The notes under the pieces are model-generated. The model was not told the origin of the DNA and ran no database searches. It saw only the letters and a program-made list of their open reading frames with translations. The translations under genes and the position numbers were made by a program. Source: an uncultured Candidatus Saccharibacteria bacterium (GTDB taxonomy: Bacteria > Patescibacteriota > Doudnabacteria > UBA920). From it: 64,000 nucleotides of DNA. The stretch is taken from positions 319,361-383,360 of the forward strand of contig CAZVXT010000001.1 of assembly GCA_964631145.1 (NCBI GenBank). Direction: 5' to 3'. Shown here in pieces: positions 50,642 through 61,753 of the stretch. Each line of letters begins with the position of its first letter. The stretch's first letter is position 1.

Positions 50642-51145
50642 CTAAATTGTTGCGCCCATCTTTTGGAGCTTGCTTTCTAAAACCAAAATTTCTAGTGCTG
50701 TTTTGGATGGTGTCTTATCTTTTAAATTTTCTTTGCTTCTTTTATATTTTAGCTGCTTTGTGTATTTTGCAATTACATTTATGAAATCATCTATCCATAA
50801 TTTTGAATCCACTAGGTATTTAAAATTTATATCTTCGTCTTTTATATAGAATAAGCCGTTCCAGTTTACTTCAAGAATATCGGTAAGTTTTGTATCTGAT
50901 CCTAAACGAGTTGATATGGTTAATGTGCAATTACCAAACATGCTTTGTCCTTCATCAAAATTAAAATTAAACCCGGCTATTGCAGCTTCGGTTTTTTTGT
51001 GAATATGGCACGAGTGTATTTGGTTATATGTTTGCACACCGAGCTTTTCTTTTAATAAAAAAGCAAAATTCATAATTTGCTCATTTTGCTTGGTTTGCAA
51101 TTTTAGTGTTCTTTTTAAGTTTGAAATATGGGTATTATCTTTCAT
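50642..51145 (-). CDS. hypothetical protein
   Basis: 167 aa. GGAGG lies upstream. Confidence 0.5.
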   Translation of the reverse strand: MKDNTHISNLKRTLKLQTKQNEQIMNFAFLLKEKLGVQTYNQIHSCHIHKKTEAAIAGFNFNFDEGQSMFGNCTLTISTRLGSDTKLTDILEVNWNGLFYIKDEDINFKYLVDSKLWIDDFINVIAKYTKQLKYKRSKENLKDKTPSKTALEILVLESKLQKMGATI

Positions 51146-55864: not shown

Positions 55865-55892
55865 AACTCGGAAGTTAGTCCGAGTTTTTTAT
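55865..55892 (+). terminator. intrinsic terminator
   Basis: Stem AACTCGG/CCGAGTT followed by T6. Confidence 0.6.
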
Positions 55893-55956: not shown

Positions 55957-55985
55957 TTGACAAGGACAAAAATTATAGATAGAAT
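55957..55985 (+). promoter_or_regulatory. candidate S10-operon promoter (TTGACA-17-TAGAAT)
   Basis: Sequence match 95 nt upstream of rpsJ. Confidence 0.5.
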
Positions 55986-56081: not shown

Positions 56082-56405
56082 ATGGAAAAAGTCGTTAACA
56101 AGCCAAAAATCAGGATTAAAATTAGAGCTTATGATCATAAGTTAATTGATCTAAGTGCTAAACAAATCGTAGATACAGCAAAGCGCACTGGGGCAAATAT
56201 TTTAGGACCAGTACCTCTTCCAACAGAGAAGCGTAAATATACTGTACTTCGTTCGACTTTTGTACATAAAGATAGCCGTGAACAATTCGAAATGCGCACT
56301 CATAAGCGCATGATCGATATTTTGGAACCAACTCCAAAAACTATTGATTCTCTTACCAATCTCAGCTTACCTGCGGGTGTAGATATTGAGATTAAAATGA
56401 GTTAA
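56082..56405 (+). CDS. rpsJ: 30S ribosomal protein S10
   Basis: [39 protein letters not shown], the S10 signature. Confidence 0.95.
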
Positions 56406-56512
56406 TAGATTTAGTAGATATGTTCTGAGAGCTTCTAGCCTAAATAGCTACAGCATTCAGATAACTATTTACCATCATGTTTAAGCCCATCTTTTTGGTG
56501 TACTTTTATATG

Positions 56513-56540
56513 CTGGGAAATAGTCCCAGTTTTTTATTTT
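56513..56540 (+). terminator. terminator-like hairpin between rpsJ and rplC (possible attenuator)
   Basis: Stem CTGGGA-AATAG-TCCCAG followed by T6, inside a 198-nt spacer. Confidence 0.4.
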
Positions 56541-56603
56541 TATATCAGTAATTAAAGTTCTGAAGTTTGAATTTTTCCCAAACCTCTCAGTTCCAGATAA
56601 TAT

Positions 56604-57272
56604 ATGAAATTTATTGCAGGAAAAAAACTAAATATGACTCAGTTCTTTGCGGACAATGGTCAAGTTATTCCAGTAACTGTAATCAAAGCTCCTCCTGTAG
56701 TAGTTACTCAGGTAAAAACTACAGAAACTAAAGATGGTTACAATGCTGTACAAATCGGCGTTAGCAGTCAAGTTAAAGGAAGTAAAAAGTCTAACAAGTC
56801 AAAGACTGGTCATAGCAAAAACTTAGGACAATTTGGATCTTTTCAAGAATTTCGTGTAGAAAATCCTGGAGATTATCAAGTCGGTCAAAAGTTGGACGTT
56901 TCAATATTTGAAGTAGGCGACATGGTCTCTGTGGTAGGTACTATGAAAGGACGTGGTTTTGCCGGAGCGATTAAGAGACATGGTTTTGCTGGTTTTCCAG
57001 CTAGTCATGGACACGATCGTCCTCGTAGCGTTGGTTCTATTGGACAAAGATATCCTCAACACACTCGTAAAGGTTTAAGAATGTCTGGTCATATGGGAAC
57101 AAACTTAGTAACTGTAAAAAACTTACAAATTGTGGATGTGGATAGCTCTAAAGGATTAATTATGGTTAAAGGTGCTGTTCCTGGAACTAATGGCGGTATG
57201 GTAAGAATTTTATCAAACGGCGTTAACAAGCCTTTATTTGTAGAAGTTGTAGAAGCTAAGAAGAAGAAATAA
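56604..57272 (+). CDS. rplC: 50S ribosomal protein L3
   Basis: MKFIAGKKLNMTQFF aligns to the L3 N-terminus. Confidence 0.95.
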   Translation: MKFIAGKKLNMTQFFADNGQVIPVTVIKAPPVVVTQVKTTETKDGYNAVQIGVSSQVKGSKKSNKSKTGHSKNLGQFGSFQEFRVENPGDYQVGQKLDVSIFEVGDMVSVVGTMKGRGFAGAIKRHGFAGFPASHGHDRPRSVGSIGQRYPQHTRKGLRMSGHMGTNLVTVKNLQIVDVDSSKGLIMVKGAVPGTNGGMVRILSNGVNKPLFVEVVEAKKKK

Positions 57273-57282
57273 GGAGATTTAA

Positions 57283-57395
57283 TTTTTGACGAATCACTTC
57301 GTTGTTTTCTGAAAAAATTTGGAAGCGTAATAACTGTTACGTTGACAAATTTTTTCAGAAAACACCTTGTGCTTCATTCAAAAATGAAACTCCTA
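57283..57395 (+). repeat. extended-hairpin intergenic repeat, copy A (rplC-rplD spacer)
   Basis: The 17-bp outer stem TTTTCTGAAAAAATTTG/CAAATTTTTTCAGAAAA (57305-57321 and 57346-57362) encloses the inner hairpin CGTAA-TAACTG-TTACG. It shares conserved flanking tails with copies B, C and D. Confidence 0.7.
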
Positions 57396-57447
57396 GGATA
57401 AAAAACAGTTTTGATAACCTACTAAATTGAATTTATTTTTTATATAA

Positions 57448-58089
57448 ATGAAAGTAACTATTTACAATCAGAACGCGGAAAGCGTTGGTGAAATCGAAGT
57501 CAATGACAAGATTTTTGCAGTAAAGCCAAGTATTCACCTTTTAGCAGAAGCGGTTAGAATCCAAGCTTCAAACGCGCGCAAGGGTCTTGCTCATACTAAG
57601 ACTCGCGGTGAGGTTTCTGGTGGTGGTAAAAAGCCATGGAAGCAAAAAGGTACTGGACGTGCTCGTGCTGGTTCTACTCGTAGTCCTATTTGGAGACATG
57701 GTGGTATCACTTTTGGTCCTCGTAGCGACCGTAACTGGAGCTTAAAGATTAATAAAAAAGCTAAAACTAAAGCTTTGTTTATGTCTCTAAGTGATAAAGT
57801 CAAAGATGGCAAATTAATTATCGTTGAAGGTCTAAACTTAGACACTCCAAAGACTAAAGAGTTTGTTAAAGTAATGACTGCTTTCCATGCCAAGCTTAAA
57901 GATTTGGGTAAGAAGCAAATGATGATTCTTCCTAAAAAAGATGAAAGCTTGGTTAGAGCAAGTCGTAACTTACAAGAAGTTAATACAGTATTAGCAACTA
58001 GCTTGAATGTTACAGATGTACTTAAAGCAGATAGCTTAATTGTTACTAAAGAGAGTTTACCTCTTATCGAAAAAACTTATTTAAAGTAA
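57448..58089 (+). CDS. rplD: 50S ribosomal protein L4
   Basis: KTRGEVSGGGKKPWKQKGTGRARAGS. Confidence 0.95.
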   Translation: MKVTIYNQNAESVGEIEVNDKIFAVKPSIHLLAEAVRIQASNARKGLAHTKTRGEVSGGGKKPWKQKGTGRARAGSTRSPIWRHGGITFGPRSDRNWSLKINKKAKTKALFMSLSDKVKDGKLIIVEGLNLDTPKTKEFVKVMTAFHAKLKDLGKKQMMILPKKDESLVRASRNLQEVNTVLATSLNVTDVLKADSLIVTKESLPLIEKTYLK

Positions 58090-58093
58090 AGAA

Positions 58094-58495
58094 ATGGCAA
58101 TATTTTCTAAAAAACAGAATAATGAAGACGAGGTAGAGAATACAGATGCAGTTGCAGAAAATTCTACCGAAGCTCAAAATCCAGTTATGATTGATGTTGC
58201 AGCAAATGGATTGGGAAATAAAGGATTAGTTTTACCAAGATTGTCCGAAAAAGCTGGATTCCTTGGTAAAGTAAACCAATATGTATTTACTATCCACGGT
58301 AACTTAAATAAGATTGAGGTTCGTAGTGCAATCGAAAAGATGTATGGAGTAAAAATTGCAAATATTAATATGATTAATGTTGCAGGAAAAACTCGTCGTT
58401 ACGGAGCTACTAAAGGTAAGAAATCCGACTATAAAAAAGCAGTTGTTACCTTGACAGCTAATAGTAAAAAGATTGATCTAGTAGAACCTAGCTAG
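58094..58495 (+). CDS. rplW: 50S ribosomal protein L23 with a 35-aa acidic N-terminal extension
   Basis: The L23 core is LVLPRLSEKA...KTRRYGATKGKKSDYKKAVVTL. An internal ATG (MIDVA) would give a canonical length. Confidence 0.9.
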   Translation: MAIFSKKQNNEDEVENTDAVAENSTEAQNPVMIDVAANGLGNKGLVLPRLSEKAGFLGKVNQYVFTIHGNLNKIEVRSAIEKMYGVKIANINMINVAGKTRRYGATKGKKSDYKKAVVTLTANSKKIDLVEPS

Positions 58496-58505
58496 GAAAA
58501 TTCCA

Positions 58506-58600
58506 TTTTTGATTATCTACTTTGTTCTTTTCTGAAAAAATTTGTCGACGTAACAGCTATTACGCTTCCAAATTTTTTCAGAAAACCCCTAGTATATAAT
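58506..58600 (+). repeat. extended-hairpin intergenic repeat, copy B (rplW-rplB spacer)
   Basis: It has the same 17-bp outer stem as copy A (about 58528-58544 and 58569-58585). The apex TCGA-CGTAA-CAGCTA-TTACG-CTTC is the reverse complement of A's apex. Confidence 0.7.
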
Positions 58601-58659
58601 TCAAAAATAAAATTTTCTTAAAGGTTGAATTTTTAAATAACTTTATCTCACTAAATTAA

Positions 58660-59502
58660 ATGGCAGTTAAATTATACAAACCAACATCACCAGGACGACG
58701 TATTTCTAGCGTTACTGATTACTCTGTGCTTGATAAGCAAGAAAAGACTCCAAAGTCATTGATTGTTTATAAAGGACGCACAGCCGGTCGCAATAACTCT
58801 GGAAAAATTACCGTAAGACATCATGGTGGTGGGGCTCGTAAGAAAATTCGTTTAGTTGATTTTACAAGAGCAGATCGCAAAAATATTCCTGGAAAAGTAA
58901 AGACTGTAGAATATGATCCAACTCGCACAGCGTTTATTTCTTTAATCTCTTATAACGATGGTGTAAAGCGTTTTATCTTAACACCTCAAGGATTAAAAGT
59001 TGGTGATACAGTAATGTATGGTGAAACAGCAGAAATTCACCCAGGTAATCGTTTGCCAATTAGCAATATTCCAGTTGGAACTTTTATTCACGATGTTGAG
59101 TTGGTTCCAGGTCATGGTGGCAAATTGGCTCGCAGTGCTGGAAGCAGTGTGTTGTTGCAAAATACTGAAGGCGGCTATGCTTTTCTAAAATTACCATCAG
59201 GTGAAATCAGAAAAGTAAGAGAAACCTGCAGCGCTACAATTGGCTCACTTTCAAATGCAGACTGGATGAATGTAAGAATTGGTAAAGCTGGACGTATGCG
59301 TCACATGGGTGTTCGCCCATCAGTTCGTGGTAAAGTAATGAACCCAGTTGATCACCCTCATGGTGGTGGTGAAGGTCAAAACTCTATTGGTATGAAATAT
59401 CCTAAGACTCCTTGGGGTAAGCATGCACTTGGTGTTAAGACTCGTTTGAAGAAAAAAGCCTCTAACAAATTTATTGTTAAGCGTCGTACTAAAAAGAAGT
59501 AA
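58660..59502 (+). CDS. rplB: 50S ribosomal protein L2
   Basis: PTSPGRR and the [16 protein letters not shown] signature. Confidence 0.96.
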
Positions 59503-59515
59503 TATTTGATTAATA

Positions 59516-59821
59516 ATGTCTCGAAGTTTAAAAAAAGGTCCATATATAGATCCCCGAGTACTTAAAAAAGTACTTGCTGCAAAGCCTGGTGACAAGATAA
59601 AAACTTGGTCTAGAGCTTGCAGTATTTCCCCAGAAATGGTGGGTCATACTTTCGCTGTGCATAATGGCCGTACTTTTATCGATGTGTATGTTTCAGAAAA
59701 CATGGTCGGTCATAAGTTAGGCGAATTCTCACCAACCCGTAAGTTTATTGGTCATGGTGGTAAGATGGCGAAAGAGCAAGCAGCTGCTAAAGCGGCTCCA
59801 GCTCCAGCAAAAAAGAAGTAA
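59516..59821 (+). CDS. rpsS: 30S ribosomal protein S19 with a short Ala/Lys-rich C-terminal extension
   Basis: [11 protein letters not shown]...HNGR...GHKLGEF. Confidence 0.95.
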
Positions 59822-59844
59822 TTTAATCAATTCAATTATAGTTA

Positions 59845-59900
59845 GTAGAAAGTAAAGTAGAGAACGGAAAATCTTTCTATATTCTACTTTACCTTCTACT
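59845..59900 (+). repeat. 17-bp inverted repeat in the rpsS-rplV spacer
   Basis: GTAGAAAGTAAAGTAGA pairs with TCTACTTTACCTTCTAC (1 mismatch) around a 22-nt loop. Confidence 0.55.
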
Positions 59901-59916
59901 TACTAAATGTAAATTT

Positions 59917-60477
59917 ATGGCCGAAAAGTCAGTACAATCTAATAAGCTCGTTAAGGCTCACGCAAGAAACCTTCGTATCTCTCCTCGCAAGCTTAGATTA
60001 TTAACAAATCTAGTAAAGCAAAAAAATGCTGAACAAGCATTAATGCAACTCCAATTTGCTAATAAAAAAGGCGCGGACATGGTTACTAAGTTGTTACAAT
60101 CTGCATTAGCCAATGCTCGTAATAACTTCTCTATGGATCCAGCCCGCATGTTCATTAAGTCTATTACTGCAGATATGGGTCCTGTGCTCAAAAGATCTTT
60201 TCCAAGAGCACGTGGTAGTGCATTCCTTATTCGTCGCAAGTTGTCTCATTTAAGCGTTGTCTTAGAAGAAGCAGCTTTGCCAAAGAAGTCTGTACCTGTT
60301 AAAAAAGCTGCAGCTAAAACTAAAGCAACTCCAGTAAAGACTAAAGAAGGTACAGTAGGTTTGCCAAAAGAGTCATCTAAGAAAATTACTCGAGGCAGCA
60401 AGGCTTCAGAAGTTCATCACGAAAATGAATCATCTAAGCGCGCGCAAGAAACTAGCAATCAGAATTTAGTAAAATAA
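59917..60477 (+). CDS. rplV: 50S ribosomal protein L22 with a 70-aa Lys-rich C-terminal extension
   Basis: ARNLRISPRKLRL...MGPVLKRSFPRARGSAF is the L22 core. It is followed by ALPKKSVPVKKAAAKTKATPVKTK... Confidence 0.92.
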   Translation: MAEKSVQSNKLVKAHARNLRISPRKLRLLTNLVKQKNAEQALMQLQFANKKGADMVTKLLQSALANARNNFSMDPARMFIKSITADMGPVLKRSFPRARGSAFLIRRKLSHLSVVLEEAALPKKSVPVKKAAAKTKATPVKTKEGTVGLPKESSKKITRGSKASEVHHENESSKRAQETSNQNLVK

Positions 60478-60493
60478 TTTTTATTAATTAATT

Positions 60494-61126
60494 ATGGGTC
60501 ATAAGATAAATCCAACATCATTAAGACTAAAAGTGACTGACACTTGGAAATCCAAATGGTTTTCCAAAGCAAACTATGCTGAGCAGTTAAAAGAAGATAT
60601 CAAGATTCGTTCTTATTTAGAACTTCATCTTCGCAAAGCAGGTTTAAGTCGCATTGACATCGAACGTCTAAACGACGGTGTGGTAACTATAGTAATTCAT
60701 ACCAGCAAGCCTGGTGTGATTAATAGAGGTACTGGTGTCGAAGAGCTTAAGAAGAGACTAAAAGATAAAGTCGGGATTCGCAAAGAAATTCGCGTAAGAG
60801 TTGAAGCTGTTGTAAACATGAATTTGTCAGCTCAAGTTATCGCTAATAATATTGCGGAACAAATCGAAAAGCGCGCTGCTTTTAGACGCTTAATGAAGCA
60901 AACATTAGAACAAGTTATGCAATCTGGCGCTAAAGGTGTAAAGGTTGCTATCGGTGGACGTTTGAATGGTGCAGAAATTGCTCGTACAGAACACTTGTCT
61001 GCTGGTAAAATTCCTCTTCATACCATTCGTGCAGATATCGACTTTGCTCGTTCTACTGCTCATACCACTTATGGAACTATTGGTATAAAAGTGTGGATTT
61101 ATCGCGGCGACATCTTTAAGAAATAA
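60494..61126 (+). CDS. rpsC: 30S ribosomal protein S3
   Basis: MGHKINPTSLRL with the KH domain and S3 C-terminal domain. Confidence 0.95.
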   Translation: MGHKINPTSLRLKVTDTWKSKWFSKANYAEQLKEDIKIRSYLELHLRKAGLSRIDIERLNDGVVTIVIHTSKPGVINRGTGVEELKKRLKDKVGIRKEIRVRVEAVVNMNLSAQVIANNIAEQIEKRAAFRRLMKQTLEQVMQSGAKGVKVAIGGRLNGAEIARTEHLSAGKIPLHTIRADIDFARSTAHTTYGTIGIKVWIYRGDIFKK

Positions 61127-61140
61127 GTACTCTAATTTTG

Positions 61141-61245
61141 AAGAATTGCTTTGTTATTTTTTCAAAAGAATTGTCGTCGTAAAAAGTATTACGCCTCCAA
61201 TTCTTTTGAAAAAAATGCCTCGCACTTCATTCAAAATTAAAGCAC
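61141..61245 (+). repeat. extended-hairpin intergenic repeat, copy C (rpsC-rplP spacer)
   Basis: The 17-bp outer stem TTTTTTCAAAAGAATTG/CAATTCTTTTGAAAAAA (61157-61173 and 61198-61214) carries compensatory changes relative to A and B. The inner CGTAA-AAAGTA-TTACG and the shared tail CACTTCATTCAAAA are present. Confidence 0.7.
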
Positions 61246-61345
61246 TCAATAATAGTCAGTTATATTATTTTTAACAAAGTTTTCCAACTGTATAAAAATA
61301 AATCATTCAAGACATATCGTTTTTTTATAGACAAAATTTTAAATT

Positions 61346-61753
61346 ATGTTAATTCCTAAGAAAGTAAAACACCGTAAACATCATCGCGGTAATAATAAAG
61401 GTAAAGCTACTTCTGGTAATTTTATTGCTTTTGGCTCATTTGCGCTTAAAGCGTTAGAAGGATCATTTGTAACTGCTCGCCAAATAGAATCTGCTCGCCG
61501 TGCGATGACTCGTAGTGTCCAACGCGGTGGTAAAATCTGGATCAGAGTATTTCCTGACAAGCCAGTTACAGATCACGGAAACGAATCTGTGATGGGTAGC
61601 GGTAAAGGTGCAGTTTCTCATTTCGTAGCTGTTGTAAAAAAAGGTCGCATCATGTTTGAAATGGACGGTGTTACCGAAGCTCAAGCTCGCGAAGCTATGA
61701 GACTAGCAGCTCATAAGTTACCAGTCAGAACTAAATTCCTGATCAAGGAATAA
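61346..61753 (+). CDS. rplP: 50S ribosomal protein L16
   Basis: [15 protein letters not shown], the L16 N-terminus. Confidence 0.95.

Follow-up and report, generated by a model that had tools for sequence, protein, structure and literature searches.

An apparent in-place inversion of a hairpin apex in a strain-variable repeat of a bacterial ribosomal protein operon

Three spacers of one ribosomal protein operon hold copies of the same long hairpin, and in one copy the tip of the hairpin reads as the reverse complement of the others, which raises the question of whether this tip has turned over between its own arms and, if so, in what kind of event. The operon is the S10/spc ribosomal protein operon, and all three copies lie within it on the + strand of the window, i.e. 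the whole 64-kb stretch of DNA analysed here; the genome sequence read consisted of this window plus 4.6 kb, roughly a tenth of the genome if the 653,896-bp contig recorded with the identical L4 protein is taken as its size. The genes concerned are rpsJ (56082-56405), rplC (56604-57272), rplD (57448-58089), rplW (58094-58495), rplB (58660-59502), rpsS (59516-59821), rplV (59917-60477), rpsC (60494-61126) and rplP (61346-61753), all on the + strand. The G+C content of the window is ~33%, and its L4 protein is 55-75% identical to those of the best GTDB species representatives, the nearest kin being uncultured Patescibacteria. The closest proteins in a large collection are ~80-85% identical, some of them labelled Candidatus Doudnabacteria, and the host is probably a small-genome Patescibacteria (CPR) bacterium related to the Doudnabacteria. 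Upstream of the operon, a terminator-like hairpin (55865-55886) ends a TPR-like gene and precedes a promoter-like site near consensus, TTGACA-17-TAGAAT, at 55957-55985, ~100 nt 5' of rpsJ. A 167-aa ORF on the - strand (50645-51145) has a weak match, under the family cut-off (E = 0.0012), to UPF0236, which we take to be a transposase-related family, and may be a degraded mobile-element gene.

The spacers that hold the hairpins are unusually long (rplC-rplD, 175 nt; rplW-rplB, 164 nt; rpsC-rplP, 219 nt), and each contains one copy of a 124-nt long-hairpin repeat on the + strand, viz. copy A at 57272-57395 (nhmmer E = 4e-34), copy B at 58495-58618 and copy C at 61124-61247. The fold of each copy is a single long hairpin, for which comparison with shuffled sequences gives z-scores between -8.4 and -9.8; copy A, with an RNA fold of -50.4 kcal/mol and z = -9.8, is the most stable among the segments listed by a sliding 124-nt fold scan of the window. 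Aligned by their centres, the three copies share one layout, consisting of a 6-nt loop, a 5-bp stem of CGTAA/TTACG, a 4x4 internal loop and a perfect 17-bp stem, outside which lie tails of ~33 nt each that pair imperfectly with each other. The motif CGTAA-N6-TTACG is found three times in the window, where 0.01 occurrences would be expected by chance. In copy A the left arm, TTTTCTGAAAAAATTTG (57305-57321), is the perfect complement of the right arm, CAAATTTTTTCAGAAAA (57346-57362), and pairing extends to 57303, giving 19 bp. The arms of B (58528-58544 and 58569-58585) and C (61157-61173 and 61198-61214) are likewise perfect over 17 bp, those of C having four fully compensated differences from A and B.

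The position of the repeat within the spacers is also regular. The element starts on the upstream stop codon, directly after it or at most 3 nt away (57270-57276, 58493-58502 and 61124-61132, and the same is seen for copy D, described below), the first base of copy A being the last base of the rplC stop codon, so that a terminating ribosome would sit on the base of the hairpin. The remainder of each spacer, 41-98 nt, lies entirely 3' of the element.

The sequence-only reading had described the apex of A as the exact reverse complement of those of B and C, with the tails of all three keeping the same orientation. The apex sequences that it quoted proved exact on re-reading, these being GAAG-CGTAA-TAACTG-TTACG-TTGA for the 24 nt of A (57322-57345), TCGA-CGTAA-CAGCTA-TTACG-CTTC for B (58545-58568) and TCGT-CGTAA-AAAGTA-TTACG-CCTC for C (61174-61197). 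The orientation signal resides in 14 asymmetric positions of the loop and internal loop, the remaining apex positions being self-complementary. At these positions A agrees with B at 4/14 in direct and 12/14 in inverted comparison (binomial probability of 12/14 or more at p = 0.3, 2.5e-5) and with C at 3/14 and 8/14, respectively, whereas B and C agree at 9/14 directly and 3/14 inverted. By BLAST, the 59-bp core of A matches the reverse complement of B at 57 of 59 positions. The inversion therefore stands and the word ‘exact’ does not, as the inverted apex still mismatches B at 2 positions and agrees with C at only 8/14. Gapped alignment of the tails gave direct versus inverted scores of 23 vs 13 for A-B, 24 vs 8 for A-C and 16 vs 5 for B-C; direct scores are higher in every pair, so the tails are collinear, as had been claimed. 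The ungapped comparison of the A and B tails gives only a modest signal (29/42 direct vs 20/42 inverted) because the tails are partly self-complementary. Across all 10 pairs of the five copies now known (A, B, C and the sister-strain copies A' and D) the tails are collinear, and the apex of A alone is inverted.

Rotation of an RNA motif was considered as another origin of this relation and rejected, since a rotated internal loop would swap its two strands unchanged, whereas the loop strands of A are the complements of those of B; for example, the 5' strand of A, GAAG, is the reverse complement of the 3' strand of B, CTTC. The relation between the two apices is a DNA inversion and not a rotated RNA motif.

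The clearest evidence comes from a sister strain. Exact-protein look-ups provided contigs of the same strain that are 100% identical to the window (L001, L002, L098, L099, L101 and L102), and cluster members of L3 led to short sister-strain contigs in three ENA assemblies. Two of these, L106 and L107, come from different assemblies, contain the same element sequence in the rplC-rplD spacer, here called A', and are ~97% identical to the window outside the tip. L107 aligns without gaps to window positions 56534-57492 with 35 mismatches, 11 of which fall within the apex (57322-57345), where 0.64 would be expected at the 2.7% background (Poisson P ~1e-10). The arms of A and A' have zero mismatches, and the tails are identical at 61/66 positions in direct register. 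The apex of A', TCGA-CGTAA-CATTTA-TTACG-CTTC, has the orientation of B and C; inverting the 24-nt apex reduces the mismatches between A and A' from 11 to 2, and at the asymmetric positions A agrees with the reverse complement of A' at 12/14. Because A', B, C and D share one orientation, the A of the window is the derived state and that of the others ancestral. This comparison of one orthologous pair, A/A', shows at the level of sequence that, in the lineage of the window, the 24-nt apex of A was flipped in place. An in-place flip is what the sequence-only reading had proposed, and the comparison of orthologous spacers in close relatives that it had suggested returned an apex related by inversion, not an arbitrary one. 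For copy B, a sister-strain counterpart in the rplW-rplB spacer was sought by an L23 homologue search and cluster look-ups, which found no near-identical variant.

One of the sister-strain contigs has a peculiarity of its own. The first part of L106 (L106:1-361), comprising the end of rpsJ and the spacer upstream of rplC, is strongly diverged from the window, and from rplC onward the contig is 96% identical to it; L107, which comes from another sample, agrees with the window in the upstream part as well. L106 derives either from a recombinant strain or from a chimeric contig.

The elements themselves come and go between these strains. Copy C is absent from the sister strain, where the rpsC-rplP spacer is 82 nt long (L105:407-488) as against 219 nt, and of C only the 9-mer TCGCACTTC, known from its right tail, is seen there, directly after the stop codon. 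Conversely, the sister strain has a fourth copy, D, in its rplF-rplR spacer (L100:2076-2199), where the window strain has 36 nt (L098:7173-7208). D is most similar to C, with agreement at 12/14 asymmetric apex positions and the highest tail score. The flanking genes are 98-99% identical between the strains that differ in the presence of C or D; the spacers with and without an element are not related by a clean insertion alone, having further differences, and a direct duplication is not recognisable. In the two closest GTDB relatives the orthologous spacers are short (38/4/39 nt and 18/4/26 nt), from which it follows that the elements are gains. The description of the hairpins as ‘dynamic DNA elements’ was thus borne out by a sister strain that lacks one copy and has another where the window strain has 36 nt. 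All five known copies lie in ribosomal protein spacers and all are co-oriented.

Taken together, our preferred reading, to which we assign a probability of about 0.78, is that the repeat of which A, B and C are copies is a hairpin of ~124 nt that varies between strains, and that the apex of A was inverted in place, sporadically, by a template switch or by recombination between the arms. In this scheme the 24-nt apex lying between two perfect inverted arms of 17-19 bp would have been reversed in the lineage of the window by one of two routes. During replication, an inter-strand template switch would allow the nascent strand to pair through one arm with the other parental strand, copy the apex there and return at the second arm; equivalent recombination between the two arms is the other route. 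The arms being perfect palindromes, such an event would alter only the asymmetric internal loop and the terminal loop, and the tails would keep their orientation. Both routes give the same product and are not separable by sequence, so the molecular route, be it template switch or arm recombination, is one that we infer from its outcome, and the flip appears to have been a sporadic mutation rather than something regulated and reversible.

An inversion confined between perfect inverted arms bears the signature of inverted-repeat spacer inversion, a process that has been described as intermolecular template switching with two polymerase hops, which favours long arms, is reversible and co-occurs with arm homogenisation (PMC8604942). 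Loop inversions and multi-base compensatory changes have also been described in RNA hairpins, including those of bacterial rRNA (PMC8794818). The present case resembles this template-switch or quasipalindrome class in three respects, i.e. the changed short spacer is bordered immediately by perfect arms, in one lineage it is reverse-complemented while the sister keeps arms and flanks, and changes on both sides keep the arms perfectly complementary (PMC8604942, PMC8794818). It differs in that the reported cases mostly invert 2-8 nt, compared to 24 nt with a nested 5-bp stem and 4x4 internal loop here, and in that the arms measure 17-19 bp and belong to a repeated intergenic element of a CPR bacterium, the event being known from the outcome sequence. 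Small inversions in plastid genomes are a further parallel, as there too stem-loops lie in non-coding spacers and close relatives differ in which way round the loop reads (PMC6824564); those are organelle genomes with many copies per cell, whereas here there is one event on a bacterial chromosome. The flip adds a new and clear case to a mutation class already known, and the hairpin repeat, although undescribed, is not categorically new.

The stems provide a second view of how these sequences are maintained. Across the five copies all 110 of 110 stem pairings are Watson-Crick, with no G-U pairs, and the arms are complementary at 34/34 positions in every copy, which fits arm homogenisation by template switching. 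Where stem pairs vary, five have changed on both sides and none on one side only, the changes including swaps of G-C to C-G and of T-A to A-T without a wobble intermediate. The antisense strand folds 6-14 kcal/mol more stably than the sense strand in four of the five copies (A', B, C and D), the flipped A being the sole copy more stable in the sense strand; a sense fold that is weaker in 4/5 copies gives no sign of optimisation of the mRNA strand. The pair changes on both sides and the weaker sense fold fit upkeep of the palindrome at the DNA level. Alternatively, selection on the hairpin may keep the stems paired, the variable pairs numbering only five. In the sense RNA, the flip lengthens the predicted apex helix from 5 to 8 pairs and takes the predicted fold from -41.8 kcal/mol in A' to -50.4 kcal/mol in A, making a selective or transcript effect of the flip possible.

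Among the other ways in which the present arrangement might have arisen, one is that the apex is a programmed micro-inverton. It would then be phase-variable and reversible, with a dedicated recombinase or a regulated process turning it over so as to alter the RNA or DNA signal in the rplC-rplD spacer; the sequence-only reading had suggested a small invertible switch. Inverted repeats do flank an asymmetric segment, both orientations are present among closely related strains, and the flip shifts the predicted stability of the sense RNA by ~9 kcal/mol. Known switches such as fim, hin and other invertons, however, invert hundreds of bases including a promoter or part of a coding sequence, through the action of a dedicated recombinase. 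The likeness here extends to inverted repeats that bracket a segment found in two orientations, but the segment (57322-57345) is 24 nt long and non-coding, with no promoter-like site in it, and the neighbouring proteins, from ~4 kb upstream to 10 kb downstream, gave no Pfam match to a recombinase family or anything else pointing to recombination, consisting of EF-Tu, ribosomal proteins and four proteins with no match or weak TPR repeats. Moreover, one flip is seen among five copies, each assembly has a single orientation, and contigs L001, L106 and L107 cross the element unbroken. A programmed switch is consequently unsupported, and we regard it as very unlikely. Somewhat better placed, if still improbable, is the exchange of a 58-bp core made up of arms and apex, either by ectopic conversion from an oppositely oriented copy at another place in the genome or by modular insertion, in either direction, into a scaffold of tails. 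The cores of A and B match at 57/59 once inverted, compared to only ~65-70% identity of their tails, so that the core looks younger or more homogenised; against this, there is no other copy in the 64-kb window or in any collection searched, the tails are co-oriented in all five known copies, and the nearly identical tails (61/66) and identical arms of A and A' make a local event the simplest account.

Insertion of the whole of element A in reverse, with the collinearity of the tails an illusion created by their self-complementarity, has in its favour that A matches B in inverted orientation over 93 nt at 84%, as against a 120-nt direct match at 76%, but the inverted match is driven by the core. 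Without the core, the tails of every pair align better when read directly, A and C have in common the right-tail 12-mer CTTCATTCAAAA and the left-tail pattern TTTTGA.GAAT..CTT.GTT, and the A and A' tails agree at 61/66 in direct register; the tail alignments and the A/A' comparison refute this explanation, leaving it with next to no probability. The remaining doubt is whether the inversion is real, as assembly error or chance point substitutions could mimic one, and the derived orientation is known from just two sequences, the window and a Logan contig (L001) that may share its data. We consider this highly improbable, given that the 17-bp arms are shorter than the assembly word sizes assumed (‘k141’ in one contig name suggests 141, and that of the Logan assemblies is presumably 31), that the 58-bp core should fit inside one short read, and that 11 clustered mismatches fall to 2 on inversion (P ~1e-10 for the clustering and 2.5e-5 for the inverted match). 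The sporadic in-place inversion remains the reading that we prefer.

As for the identity of the repeat, an nhmmer profile of A, B and C found no further copies in the whole window or in the corresponding loci of 80 GTDB relatives. A metagenome scan for the palindromic apex pattern gave 12 loci, all of them unrelated short hairpins, and a scan of viral contigs gave 11 pattern matches, none of which fits the element profile beyond the apex on which they were selected. BLAST gave no match for A among phages or for C among plasmids, and Rfam 15 gave none at the gathering score and only spurious matches to miRNA precursors at E <= 1. By sequence similarity, then, no other organism with the element was apparent in the collections searched. 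In its form the element resembles REPIN/REP, MITE, ERIC and Correia-type repeats, being an imperfect palindrome of ~120 nt in several copies, located in spacers within operons and variable in presence between strains (the description of REPINs used for comparison is that of PMC3337134). Unlike REPIN, MITE, ERIC and Correia-type repeats, it has no known transposase partner and no recognised target-site duplication, and its known copies are confined to one operon; REP and REPIN sequences are dispersed at high copy number, whereas the copies in the 64-kb window number three and are clustered within 4 kb of one operon. REP and REPIN sequences are also associated with a RAYT (Y1 transposase) gene; the proteins scanned here for Pfam matches, with the outcome given above, are the neighbours of the operon. 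A GTAG or CGTC tag further marks one end of the REP or REPIN palindrome (PMC3733652), and on reading the sequences no consistent tag of this kind was found at the ends of the stem or of the element. With MITEs, which have terminal inverted repeats flanked by a target-site duplication, the element shares presence/absence polymorphism at orthologous sites, as seen for C and D. ERIC-like units are imperfect palindromes of ~127 bp located in transcribed intergenic regions in both orientations. The 124-nt length and the position of the present element fit this description, while the co-orientation of its five copies does not, the comparison with ERIC being one of size, position and orientation. REPIN, MITE and ERIC-like repeats being the nearest known kinds, we describe the element as working like them, and place it in none of those families.

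Other spacers of this operon, and of its counterparts in relatives, are also rich in structure. In the window, the rpsS-rplV spacer (59826-59918) has a fourth long hairpin with 45-nt arms that are 76% complementary and a sequence unrelated to A, B and C; it is conserved in sister strains (L103 and L104), with substitutions and no apex inversion. The rpsJ-rplC spacer (window 56406-56603) is long in relatives, at 137-377 nt (L005:3512-3775, L007:4948-5213, L009:5004-5257, L008:2278-2414, L083:1194-1570 and L085:722-980), and a structured segment recurs in these spacers, with motifs of the type GTGAATAGGTTCTG ... AGATAACGATTC, after which come a hairpin resembling a terminator and a run of T (in the window, 56512-56530 and then TTTTTT). 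This segment gave no match to an Rfam family and looks like a conserved attenuator or leader between rpsJ and rplC.

Hairpin repeats in such spacers are not peculiar to the window. In six relatives (L005, L007, L009, L023, L008 and L083), many operon spacers of 60-130 nt are filled with genome-specific hairpin repeats; L084 and L085 share a hairpin family with GTCATTCTGAGCG.AGCGAAGAATC, and L007 and L009 share another. Where a family has two to four copies, they are almost always co-oriented within a genome, and this co-orientation could come from strand-specific copying, from local spread inside the operon or from selection acting on the transcript. A broader reading, tentative and on present evidence doubtful, is that genome-specific, co-oriented hairpins placed at stop codons fill the ribosomal operon spacers throughout Doudnabacteria-like genomes, where they would be propagated and kept perfectly paired by self-templated replication through template switching, with apex inversion as a by-product, and may serve as signals for mRNA processing or stability in genomes that have almost no other spacer DNA.

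The flip described here is an unusually clean natural inversion of a hairpin apex, with both states at one orthologous locus in strains that are ~97% identical, and the inverted segment, at 24 nt with internal structure, exceeds most reported cases. It means that clusters of differences of this kind in spacers are single events and not many substitutions. CPR genomes, which are well under 1 Mb and usually called streamlined, evidently tolerate fast-turnover hairpin repeats inside their most conserved operon. The putative clade-wide filling of ribosomal protein spacers by co-oriented hairpin repeats is a more interesting lead than the flip itself. Should such repeats be functional or self-propagating, they would open a new way into the study of mRNA processing or of genome dynamics among uncultured bacteria.
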